From a virus (taxonomy: Duplodnaviria; Heunggongvirae; Uroviricota; Caudoviricetes): a stretch of 64,000 bases of DNA. The stretch lies in IMG/VR virus record IMGVR_UViG_2875713109_000001; one strand, written 5' to 3'. This document shows positions 11,411 to 12,941 of the stretch, piece by piece. Every line of letters starts with the position of its first letter. The stretch's first letter is position 1. Position numbers and translations under genes: made by a program. The notes below the pieces were generated by a model. That model saw only the letters and a list, made by a program, of their open reading frames with translations, had not been told where the DNA came from and did no database searches.

Positions 11411-11416
11411 TAAAAA

Positions 11417-11434
11417 CCCCGTCAGTTGGCGGGG
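11417..11434. terminator. hairpin CCCCG-n8-CGGGG downstream of the 10616-11410 ORF
   Basis: 5-bp GC stem flanked by an A-run; terminator function uncertain. Confidence 0.3.
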
Positions 11435-11607
11435 AACTCCACGTCAAATGGCCAATTGTTATGTCAGCTAGCAGTTAAAGCGCCTAGTCATCATCTTTTA
11501 AAGAAGTCTTTTTAACTTACCTAAATTAGTGACACCTCCCGTTTTGCTTGCTATTGTACGCATTCATGAATCTATTCATTAATCTATTCACAATAGTAAT
11601 TAAAACT

Positions 11608-12912
11608 ATGGCTATACATGCAACAACAATCCGTAATTTGCTCAATCAAGGTCCTATGACACCAAGACAATTGGTTGAAAGACTAAGTGTTAGCCAACCA
11701 ACGATATCTAGAGCATTAAGAGATCTTGGTGATGAAATCGTTAGGATCGGAAATGGAAGATCTATTCAATATGCTTTACGAGACTCTTTTAGAGGATTCG
11801 AATCAGTCCCCATTTATCGTATAACTGAAGAGGGGTGTATTTGCGTTCTTGGTACTCTCATTCCGGTGAGGCCAGAAGGCTATGTTATGGTTGAGGAAGG
11901 GAAAAATAACAGGCATAGCGATGGGTTACCTTGGTGGTTATTTGATATGCGTCCACAAGGCTTCCTTGGAAGAGCATATGCATCAGCATATGCTCTTGAA
12001 CTTAACCTTCCCTCAAATCCAGAGCAATGGTCAGATACTGACGTGATCAAAGCCTTACTTAAGCATGGGCATGATGTTGTTGGTAATTTGTTAATTGGAG
12101 AGCAAGCACGCACGCATTTTTTAGAGATGCAGCCTCCTGTTCCTGTTAATCGTGAAAGTGAATATCCTGTATTAGCTTTAGCTGCTGGTGAAGGTGATGT
12201 GCCCGGTTCATCTGCTGGAGGTGAACAACCCAAATTTTGTACTTTCACAGAGCGTGGACATGTATTAGTGAAATTCTCTGCGCCTAACGACACCCCTATA
12301 AGTGAGCGTTGGAGAGATCTCTTGTTTGCTGAACATCTCGCATTAAAAGTTCTGGGGGTAGAAACAGAAGTTTTTGATTATAACGGTCAGAGATTCTTGG
12401 AAATTCCCCGATTTGATCGTGTTGGTCAACTAGGTCGGGTAGGTGTATTCTCACTTCGTGCACTTGATGCAGAATTTGTTGGGAATGCAAGAGCAACATG
12501 GCCCTTGCTGGTTAAAGAGTTGGTAAAAAATAAGTGCGTCCATCCTGATGCGATTATTATAGCAACAAGGCTATGGTCTTTTGGTTTGCTAATAGGCAAT
12601 ACCGATATGCATAATGGTAACCTATCGTTTATTAGTAGCCACGGACGCCCATATCATATTGCTCCAGCCTATGACATGTTACCTATGGGTTTTGCTCCAC
12701 GCTCTGGGGGAGCAATATCTAATGAGCTTAGAAAAACAGCACTACCAGACTTTGTAAGTCGAAAAATATGGGATGAATCTCTTGAATTGGCTGAAAAATT
12801 TTATGCATTGGCCTGTGAGTCCGACAAATTCTCAGCTAACTTTACTCCATGTTTAGAAGCGCTACGCATCCACCTAGATGATTGTAAGATACGCATAGCC
12901 CGCCTGGCATAA
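11608..12912 (+). CDS. HipA-like Ser/Thr kinase with N-terminal HTH domain (E. coli YjjJ-like)
   Basis: HTH TPRQLVERLSVSQPTISRALRDLGD; HipA P-loop-like SSAGGEQPKF; catalytic-loop-like IGNTDMHNGNLSF (D-x-H-x-x-N). AT-rich with frequent AGA/ATA/CTA/TTA codons. Start taken at ATG 11608; track frame opens at TTG 11548. Confidence 0.7.
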   Translation: MAIHATTIRNLLNQGPMTPRQLVERLSVSQPTISRALRDLGDEIVRIGNGRSIQYALRDSFRGFESVPIYRITEEGCICVLGTLIPVRPEGYVMVEEGKNNRHSDGLPWWLFDMRPQGFLGRAYASAYALELNLPSNPEQWSDTDVIKALLKHGHDVVGNLLIGEQARTHFLEMQPPVPVNRESEYPVLALAAGEGDVPGSSAGGEQPKFCTFTERGHVLVKFSAPNDTPISERWRDLLFAEHLALKVLGVETEVFDYNGQRFLEIPRFDRVGQLGRVGVFSLRALDAEFVGNARATWPLLVKELVKNKCVHPDAIIIATRLWSFGLLIGNTDMHNGNLSFISSHGRPYHIAPAYDMLPMGFAPRSGGAISNELRKTALPDFVSRKIWDESLELAEKFYALACESDKFSANFTPCLEALRIHLDDCKIRIARLA

Positions 12913-12917
12913 ACAAC

Positions 12918-12941
12918 AAATCCCGCCGATTGGCGGGATTT
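12918..12941. terminator. bidirectional intrinsic terminator AAATCCCGCC-gatt-GGCGGGATTT
   Basis: Perfect 10-bp stem with A/T runs on both sides, between convergent kinase gene and minus-strand operon. Confidence 0.65.

Follow-up and report, generated by a model that had tools for sequence, protein, structure and literature searches.

The stretch of DNA considered here (IMG/VR virus record IMGVR_UViG_2875713109_000001), 64,000 nucleotides in length and referred to throughout as the window, is a P1-like phage-plasmid in which the genes lyz, ssb, isaA, hipH, hxr, ddrB and darA follow one another. Our subject is hipH, a member of the HipH/YjjJ gene family, which together with its leader occupies a compact cassette between two genes of the P1 backbone (Table 1). 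An original prediction, made from the letters of the sequence, had described the locus as a HipA-like kinase with an N-terminal helix-turn-helix (HTH), bracketed by terminators in an AT-rich moron, located between ssb and the dar operon, where P1 is not known to have such a gene. The gene does lie between ssb and the dar/ddr genes, and canonical P1 lacks it, carrying IS1 and isaB at the same site. The HipH/YjjJ family is already known; new are a P1-like phage-plasmid as its carrier, of which the literature searched makes no mention and which is silently annotated in public records, where the automatic pipeline always names the cassette gene yjjJ, the divergence of this copy from the characterised protein of Escherichia coli K-12, and a repeat array found upstream of hipH genes across the family.

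Table 1. Features of the hipH cassette and its flanks, in window positions (".", no strand assigned)
Feature	Position	Strand	Basis
C1 operator Ossb, ssb promoter region	9889..9905	+	2 mismatches to C1 consensus
isaA homologue, left flank, P1 backbone	10448..11410	+	PHROG 2326, 1.2e-148; isaA in P1 and SJ46
Inserted cassette, ~1.5 kb: left hairpin, predicted promoter/operator and hipH	11417..12917	+	SJ46 empty-site junctions
Left hairpin CCCCGTC-AGTT-GGCGGGG	11417..11434	.	terminator scan; -13.3 kcal/mol, z -2.4
Predicted sigma-70-like promoter GTGACA-17 nt-TATTGT with TG extension	11529..11557	+	promoter scan
Putative HipH operator, three 12-bp-phased direct repeats ACGCATTCAtga / ATCTATTCAtta / ATCTATTCAcaa	11558..11593	+	repeat finder
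hipH (yjjJ-family) coding sequence	11608..12912	+	434 amino acids, stop included in the span; NF007297, HipA_C, cluster P0001
N-terminal winged HTH domain, residues 1-60	11608..11787	+	Pfam HTH_5/MarR_2; Foldseek ArsR/SmtB/CzrA
Third exact ATCTATTCA copy, inside the coding sequence	11760..11768	+	motif search; codons for S-I-Q-Y
Gly-rich (P-loop) motif GSSAGGEQPKF, residues 200-210	12205..12237	+	HipA/K-12 HipH alignment; family-invariant
K222, equivalent to the HipA ATP-binding K181	12271..12273	+	alignment
Catalytic motif IGNTDMHNGNLSF, residues 329-341	12592..12630	+	HipA and HipT(Lp) alignments
Mg2+-binding motif PAYDMLPM; D356 equivalent to HipA D332	12664..12687	+	alignment
Right hairpin AAATCCCGCC-GATT-GGCGGGATTT	12918..12941	.	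terminator scan; one base off the SJ46 hairpin
hxr homologue, right flank, P1 backbone	12944..13252	-	hxr in P1, SJ46 and RCS47; PHROG 2292

The longest open reading frame (ORF) at the locus, 11548-12912 on the plus strand, opens with TTG and would encode 454 amino acids. The start supported on biological grounds, and the one adopted here, would be the ATG at 11608, giving an intact protein of 434 residues, because all homologues begin at the equivalent position, because what the longer forms add at the N-terminus is translated DNA repeat, and because the second of two P1-borne alleles no longer has the in-frame ATG at 11566. We therefore rejected both the TTG at 11548, whose added residues translate the repeats described below, and the ATG at 11566 (448 amino acids, the form held in PHROG 30447). 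Base composition sets the region apart: GC content is 0.36-0.44 over 11300-12950 versus ~0.48-0.52 in the flanks, and at third codon positions hipH has a GC content (GC3) of 0.287, lower than in any other of the 32 long ORFs of the window (mean 0.486, sd 0.057; z = -3.5), which bears out the atypical codon usage that had been predicted. Besides hipH, the cassette holds no ORF of 40 or more amino acids, and no HipB-like antitoxin ORF was found within it or on either side. The absence of an adjacent antitoxin had already been remarked upon; it is a defining trait of the monocistronic HipH family rather than an anomaly (PMC8262856).

The encoded protein is almost certainly a member of the HipH/YjjJ family, in which an HTH is fused to a HipA-type serine/threonine kinase core, since every defining feature that could be tested is present. 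HipH constitutes clade X of the Hip kinases, which is monocistronic and characterised by an HTH-bearing N-terminal extension and by two serines at the Gly-rich loop (Gerdes et al., PMC8262856). Our protein passes the NCBIfam equivalog NF007297 (HipA family toxin YjjJ) with 531.7 bits versus a cut-off of 401, its residues 4-434 covering profile positions 3-446 of 446, and hence the full length of the profile. It further matches Pfam HipA_C (PF07804) at 3e-15, with 56.9 bits versus a cut-off of 30.5, and residues 4-47 match HTH_5 (3.3e-6, above its own cut-off) and MarR_2 (1.3e-5). It aligns end to end with K-12 HipH/YjjJ at 35% identity over 434 amino acids (E 5e-90) and with HipA at 21% identity; the nearest solved structure by sequence is Legionella HipT (8ezr, E 7.6e-6). 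A Pfam search of the protein returned no HipA N-terminal domain and detected no nuclease motif or domain. The YjjJ-like architecture named in the original prediction is thereby confirmed by profile search and alignment, and the two findings it had named as telling against it, an insignificant HipA-family profile match and a syntenic gene in P1, were not encountered. The partner genes of the HipBA, HipBST and HipA/DUF3037 systems are absent, and for this reason we do not assign the locus to any of them.

The three motifs quoted in the original prediction, namely the HTH, SSAGGEQPKF (residues 201-210) and a catalytic-loop motif, were all located in the ORF. The HTH motif TPRQLVERLSVSQPTISRALRDL spans residues 18-40, and the recognition-helix residues S29, Q30, T32, S34 and R35 are invariant in a 27-sequence family alignment. 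At the level of fold, the first ~59 residues of an AlphaFold2 model superpose on ArsR/SmtB/CzrA winged helices with a root-mean-square deviation of 1.5-2.0 Å, and the top Protein Data Bank (PDB) matches of the model in Foldseek are HipA structures (probability 1.0). The kinase core retains all the catalytic positions of HipA, that is, S202, K209, K222, D333, H335, N338 and D356. S202 and K209 correspond to HipA S150 and K157, S202 belonging to a Gly-rich loop with two conserved serines, and D333, H335 and N338 correspond to D309, H311 and N314 of the catalytic D-x-H-x-x-N. The four Hip kinase motifs are invariant in the 27 family members, the homologues being 36-72% identical. The kinase activity and toxicity of the phage-borne copy are inferred from the K-12 protein, which is toxic when overproduced, less so when kinase-dead, phosphorylates ribosomal protein L31 (RpmE) and CsrA and not GltX, and causes no rise in antibiotic tolerance (PMC9948734). 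K-12 HipH is further known to be nucleoid-localised, to need its HTH for toxicity and to be regulated at its promoter (PMC11452175).

Between isaA and hipH, a single plus-strand promoter match precedes the gene, and the call is supported by homologues, which have a matching -10-like element directly before their repeats. Directly after the -10 box, the hipH leader contains two perfect copies of ATCTATTCA at 12-bp spacing followed by a degenerate third; together they cover the predicted transcription start and the leader, ending 14 nt before the ATG, in front of which no Shine-Dalgarno sequence is visible. Exact ATCTATTCA occurs three times in the window, always at hipH (0.67 expected), and the search of the window found no other HipH sites, the pair at hipH being the sole 12-bp-phased one even when two mismatches are allowed. 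The third exact copy lies inside the coding sequence and may owe its presence to a preference for AT-rich codons, not to a function in binding; of the residues encoded there, S52, I53 and Y55 are conserved among the aligned proteins. The chromosomal K-12 hipH carries the same element: three copies of ATCTATTCA at 12-bp spacing abut its ATG and a fourth lies 65 bp upstream, making four copies in 7 kb versus 0.03 expected (L002 2669-2766), and no DNA similarity is detectable between the K-12 and phage-borne genes outside the repeats.

A survey of 80 homologue loci (L006-L085; 48-72% identity), drawn from Enterobacterales, Rhodocyclales, Burkholderiales, Methylococcales and others, indicates how widely this arrangement is held. 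With one mismatch allowed, there are 163 occurrences of the motif in 12.2 kb of upstream DNA and 136 in 625 kb of other sequence, corresponding to 13.3 versus 0.22 per kb, a 61-fold enrichment. The repeats stand at -50, -38, -26 and -14 from the start codon, usually directly after a TAnAAT box. At least two ATTCA cores in 12-bp phase are present at 71 of the 80 loci and at least three at 57, compared to none of 2,000 control windows from the same loci for two or more. The ATCTATTCA array is family-wide in the hipH leaders of gamma- and beta-proteobacteria, which likewise show no recognisable Shine-Dalgarno sequence. We propose that (A)TCTATTCA repeats in 12-bp phase, placed after the -10 box and before the start codon, be regarded as a new family feature, one that lies outside the published definition of HipH; the repeat motif was not found in the literature searched.

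The phased repeats are probably the operator of HipH's own HTH, because the cis element travels with the gene across phyla and onto a phage without a partner gene: inspection of what lies next to 55 homologue loci detected no recurrent partner or antitoxin gene, any one Pfam family accounting for at most 3 of 109 neighbours. Autoregulation of HipH through the repeats is, in our estimation, likely. Fold prediction gives no structure for the leader RNA (z -0.6), which favours an element acting at the level of DNA. The idea that the leader acts as a structured RNA or belongs to a known RNA family was rejected, given this score and the lack of an Rfam family match to the leader; one sub-threshold Rfam match falls at the right terminator (22 bits versus 114).

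The boundaries of the cassette emerge from comparison with Salmonella phage SJ46, where the site is empty and the ends of isaA and hxr meet at one terminator serving both directions, AAAAAAAA-TCCCGCCGACTGGCGGGA-TTTCTTC, whose hairpin reads AAATCCCGCC-GACT-GGCGGGATTT. The right hairpin of the window differs from it by one base and is predicted to fold stably on either strand (-17.0 kcal/mol with z -5.1, and -19.8 kcal/mol; z close to -5 in both cases); to judge by these features it is the P1 backbone's own bidirectional terminator, common to hipH on the plus strand and hxr on the minus strand. The left hairpin, CCCCGTCAGTTGGCGGGG, is a diverged look-alike of the backbone terminator. Six IMG/VR contigs have this left hairpin; in each of them it directly precedes the cassette promoter region, and in four the right hairpin follows at 1,506 bp. 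Since the left hairpin is linked to the cassette and the right one derives from the backbone, we place the insert at ~11417-12917. The prediction that terminators bracket the gene stands in part: both hairpins lie exactly where they had been placed, but the T-run of the left one (TTTTTATTAG tail) occurs on the minus strand only, with none on the plus strand, and it is therefore no plus-strand terminator; read-through from ssb-isaA into hipH is possible as a consequence. The two hairpins are alike in design, each with a GC stem, a 4-nt loop and a CCCG..CGGG core, and differ in sequence, only the left one being cassette-linked; it may have arrived with the donor DNA, or it may have arisen at insertion through duplication of the backbone terminator, followed by divergence.

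Presence or absence at a fixed site, a predicted promoter of its own, flanking hairpins and deviant composition are the hallmarks of a moron, and the hipH cassette is most likely a self-contained, horizontally acquired moron of 1.5 kb with predicted transcription. The isaA-hxr junction, known as variable region 2, is a multi-allelic cargo site. It is occupied by IS1 and isaB in P1 (L096 2127-3633), by a 356-amino-acid PHROG 5902 protein of unknown function in vB_EcoM-813R1 (L003 2604-3674) and also in MH422554, and by a 95-amino-acid ORF in vB_EcoM-Ro157c2YLVW (L004 2858-3145). The PHROG 5902 protein of 813R1 and MH422554 has weak similarity to terminase large subunits. A published comparison counts the isaA-IS1-isaB segment as one of eight regions of low GC in which P1-like elements vary; a hipH gene is not mentioned there (PMC9603915).

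Further cargo is found nearby and elsewhere. Between ssb and isaA, other P1-like elements encode a protein with a Tad2-like (anti-Thoeris) domain (PF11195, ~2e-22), as in SJ46 (L001 1477-2322) and vB_EcoM-Ro157c2YLVW (L004 1145-1822), so that the stretch from ssb to hxr has at least two independent cargo slots; the corresponding gap of the window (10414-10612) is without a gene. A DUF3800 protein at 39625-40329 on the plus strand (PF12686, 3.6e-14; GC 0.35, GC3 0.34) is second to hipH in compositional deviation and may be another foreign cargo gene.

The flanking genes are those of the backbone. The isaA homologue also has a shorter form starting at ATG 10613. Both isaA and hxr occur equally in elements without the kinase gene, and hxr, being present in P1-like elements with and without hipH, is not a dedicated antitoxin. 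Upstream, ssb (9925-10413) follows an Ossb region that is 95% identical to the annotated lyz-ssb intergenic region of P1 with Ossb/P2ssb. From this sequence conservation, ssb-isaA would be under the control of the P1 C1 repressor, possibly along with hipH by read-through. Seven matches to the P1 C1 operator consensus ATTGCTCTAATAAATTT with at most three mismatches occur in the window, at 6039, 9889, 36033, 37695, 52865, 56387 and 56398, versus 0.33 expected, a distribution consistent with a complete P1-type immunity circuit in the element.

The cassette is an infrequent yet recurrent companion of P1-like elements. It is present in full in 29 of 484 matching PLSDB plasmids, with one more split at the record start, and in 25 of 479 matching RefSeq E. 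coli genomes; carriage amounts to ~6% of P1-like plasmids. No DNA match was found among 50,697 GenBank phage genomes, nor was any HipH homologue detectable in them by tblastn. The exact protein heads cluster P0001, which comprises 192 sequences on 714 contigs from human, poultry and pig hosts and from wastewater. In all ten genomic contexts that were read, the arrangement is lyz-ssb-isaA-[hipH]-hxr-ddrB. One chromosome record, NZ_CM148631.1 of E. coli PK-F-10122, contains the cassette with P1 flanks at 4437371-4439121 and reflects either the integration of a P1-like element or a join made in assembly.

Two P1-borne alleles, ~98% identical in the coding sequence, differ by 15 synonymous and 7-9 non-synonymous changes; the resulting ratio of non-synonymous to synonymous rates (dN/dS) of 0.14-0.18 indicates that the phage-borne gene is under purifying selection, and the gene is intact in every copy examined. 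The closest relatives outside P1-like elements are 72% identical and belong to Pantoea, Gibbsiella, Serratia and Enterobacter, with which the protein forms a subclade of 434 amino acids. Recent transfer from the E. coli chromosome was rejected as an origin, the chromosomal yjjJ not being recovered by distant-mode blastn and the proteins being 35% identical. A search for the donor found none: the best homologues outside P1-like elements, at 72% identity, come from high-GC Enterobacterales, compared with a GC3 of 0.29 for hipH. Homologues reside on other plasmids as well, for instance in Aeromonas and Enterobacter, while most are chromosomal and in unrelated contexts. In Gibbsiella quercinecans (L101 1-5766) a hipH homologue lies directly beside a type I restriction-modification (R-M) operon, and in Enterobacter (L097-L099) one ends a cus/sil-type metal-efflux island with IS66 copies; the two contexts have no recurring partner gene.

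How might such a gene serve its carrier? The best explanation overall, and one in which we place moderate confidence, is that hipH forms a moron whose single-protein toxin represses its own gene and serves the lysogen against competitors. Under this explanation, hipH would be transcribed in the lysogen from its own sigma-70 promoter, and the HTH domain would bind the three 12-bp-phased ATCTATTCA repeats and keep expression low, taking the place of a HipB repressor. HipH that accumulates or is released would then phosphorylate host proteins and arrest growth. The benefit to the lysogen would most plausibly be directed against competitors, through a function of the abortive-infection or exclusion type. 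By analogy with other Hip kinases, defence or exclusion as the selected role is a tentative proposal, held with less than even confidence.

Several points weigh against this explanation or its parts. HipH itself is not known to defend against phage. PADLOC gave no significant match to a defence model, the best being WYL at 7e-4 and PDC-M03A at 1e-3. Association with defence genes is weak, such genes making up ~7 of 109 immediate neighbours of chromosomal homologues (type I R-M, BrxA, MzaA and two PDC candidates), and the surrounding P1 genes, dar/ddr here and the Tad2-like gene in relatives, serve counter-defence rather than defence. At 35% identity to K-12 HipH, the phage copy may have different substrates. 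Promoter matches alone do not exceed chance, five being found where 4.5 are expected. The AlphaFold2 model is mediocre, with a mean predicted local distance difference test (pLDDT) score of 66.9 and a catalytic loop below 50, having been built on an alignment restricted to sequences 67-72% identical, and was therefore used for fold-level matches only. Finally, the mechanism of HipH toxicity is itself disputed, kinase (PMC9948734) or DNase (PMC11452175).

The genomic neighbourhood invites a different account, in which HipH would be a counter-defence or host-takeover kinase that the phage itself employs while infecting or being induced, expressed by read-through from the C1-controlled ssb-isaA genes and phosphorylating DNA-associated host or defence proteins. 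The gene is co-oriented with ssb-isaA, no plus-strand terminator stands between the isaA stop and hipH, the ssb promoter and C1 operator are conserved, ddrB and darA lie directly after, and SJ46 and Ro157c2YLVW carry their Tad2-like gene between ssb and isaA. The combination of kinase activity, DNA binding, nucleoid localisation and HTH-dependent toxicity in HipH (PMC11452175) would suit such a role, for which the phage T7 kinase (gp0.7, T7K) offers a precedent as a DNA-binding kinase that helps the phage through phosphorylation of DNA-associated host or defence proteins (PMC13645617). Like HipH, T7K is a phage-borne serine/threonine kinase coupled to a DNA-binding domain; however, the two are unrelated in fold, and T7K is an early product of a lytic phage, whereas HipH belongs to a temperate phage-plasmid, has bacterial relatives and is preceded by a putative autoregulatory leader. 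That leader and the gene's own predicted promoter, as in chromosomal copies, suggest steady low expression rather than a burst early in infection, and a gene borne by only ~6% of P1-like elements, with no homologue detectable in GenBank phage records, is not what the account would lead one to expect. We regard it as unlikely. A bolder variant would make HipH an offensive, DNA-tethered kinase beside the Dar genes, an analogue of T7K on a HipA fold: transcribed by read-through upon infection or induction, it would be guided by its HTH domain to phosphorylate nucleoid-associated proteins of the host or defence systems that sense DNA, and the ATCTATTCA array would serve as a DNA sink that silences it in the lysogen. 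This we hold to be quite unlikely.

The dispute over toxicity gives rise to a further alternative, which rivals the proposed mechanism and leaves the identity of the protein untouched: HipH would be a DNase that depends on its HTH and is restrained by c-di-GMP, which would make the phage copy a genotoxic effector coupled to the c-di-GMP level of the host. For K-12 HipH, Liao et al. (eLife 2024, PMC11452175) report that deletion of the catalytic motif kept toxicity and deletion of the HTH abolished it, and that the purified protein cleaved DNA in a manner inhibited by c-di-GMP. Against these observations stand phosphoproteomics and in vitro assays that show kinase activity, together with the reduced toxicity of kinase-dead mutants (PMC9948734). 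The kinase residues, moreover, are invariant among the homologues and under purifying selection, which would be hard to explain were catalysis dispensable, and the protein presents no detectable nuclease motif or domain. A nuclease effector is accordingly improbable here.

Plasmid addiction, raised in the original prediction alongside abortive infection and exclusion, would have HipH act as a one-protein toxin-antitoxin that kills plasmid-free cells, restrained in the lysogen by its N-terminal domain or by operator binding. In favour of this, the prophage exists as a plasmid of low copy number, HipBA strongly stabilises a Klebsiella plasmid that carries it (PMC11487325), the HTH extension has been proposed as a possible cis-acting antitoxin by Gerdes et al. 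(PMC8262856), and the homologues on Aeromonas and Enterobacter plasmids might be read in the same way. Yet without a separate labile antitoxin, activation of the toxin after plasmid loss is not obvious; P1-like elements already possess phd-doc (PMC9603915); most HipH homologues are chromosomal; and control specific to the plasmid would be confounded by the hipH on the chromosome of E. coli hosts, which has the same operator motif. We consider addiction very unlikely. That hipH is a neutral passenger without selected function, or a pseudokinase acting as a transcription factor only, is highly improbable, for even though it sits on a small minority of P1-like replicons, at a site that accepts unrelated cargo including an IS element, the gene is intact in all copies examined, has a low dN/dS and conserved catalytic and HTH residues, and heads a cluster spread over hundreds of contigs from humans, poultry, pigs and wastewater.

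Taken as an autorepressed toxin, the phage-borne gene bears on how HipH is controlled. HipH is an odd Hip kinase toxin in having no antitoxin gene; the repeats offer a concrete candidate operator, one that predicts autorepression and, through the motif they share, that phage-borne and chromosomal HipH in E. coli may bind each other's operators and so engage in cross-talk. A diverged copy on a transmissible P1-like element also provides a natural setting, with lysogens that do and do not carry the gene. P1-like elements, which have drawn attention chiefly as carriers of antibiotic-resistance genes, can thereby be credited with a toxin kinase among their cargo.

Among the established Hip systems, HipA of HipBA shares with the protein the HipA_C core, with the catalytic Asp, the Mg Asp, the ATP-binding Lys and the position of the autophosphorylated Ser, and growth arrest on overexpression has its counterpart in the K-12 HipH homologue. 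Unlike HipBA, the locus has neither a HipA N-terminal domain nor a hipB gene, and DNA binding is built into the toxin itself. HipB palindromes follow the form TATCC-N8-GGATA, whereas the repeats here are direct and phased at 12 bp. HipT of HipBST likewise has a short kinase core without HipA N-subdomain 1 and two conserved serines in the Gly-rich loop (PMC8262856), but it is accompanied by a separate neutraliser, HipS, and a regulator, HipB; here neither is present and an HTH stands at the N-terminus.

The HipA/DUF3037 systems (DS-6, "HipAD", PADLOC PDC-M66) also place a HipA-family kinase on mobile or defence regions, and HipA/DUF3037 and DS-6 are validated phage defences whose growth-arrest-based phenotype requires the catalytic residue (PMC13092281, PMC12548924). 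They differ in requiring a DUF3037 neutraliser and in lacking a fused HTH; no partner gene exists here, and PADLOC found no PDC-M66/DS-6 match on hipH. The nearest parallel is K-12 HipH (YjjJ, b4385). The phage copy departs from it in sequence, in length (434 versus 443 amino acids) and in belonging to a separate subclade, in being carried by a phage-plasmid rather than at the fixed deoD-lplA locus of the chromosome, and in having two perfect repeats and one degenerate repeat where K-12 has three plus one distal. The two have in common a winged HTH joined to a HipA-type core, colinear over the full length, the four kinase motifs, the double-serine Gly-rich loop, a monocistronic gene without an antitoxin, and the 12-bp-phased ATCTATTCA repeats.

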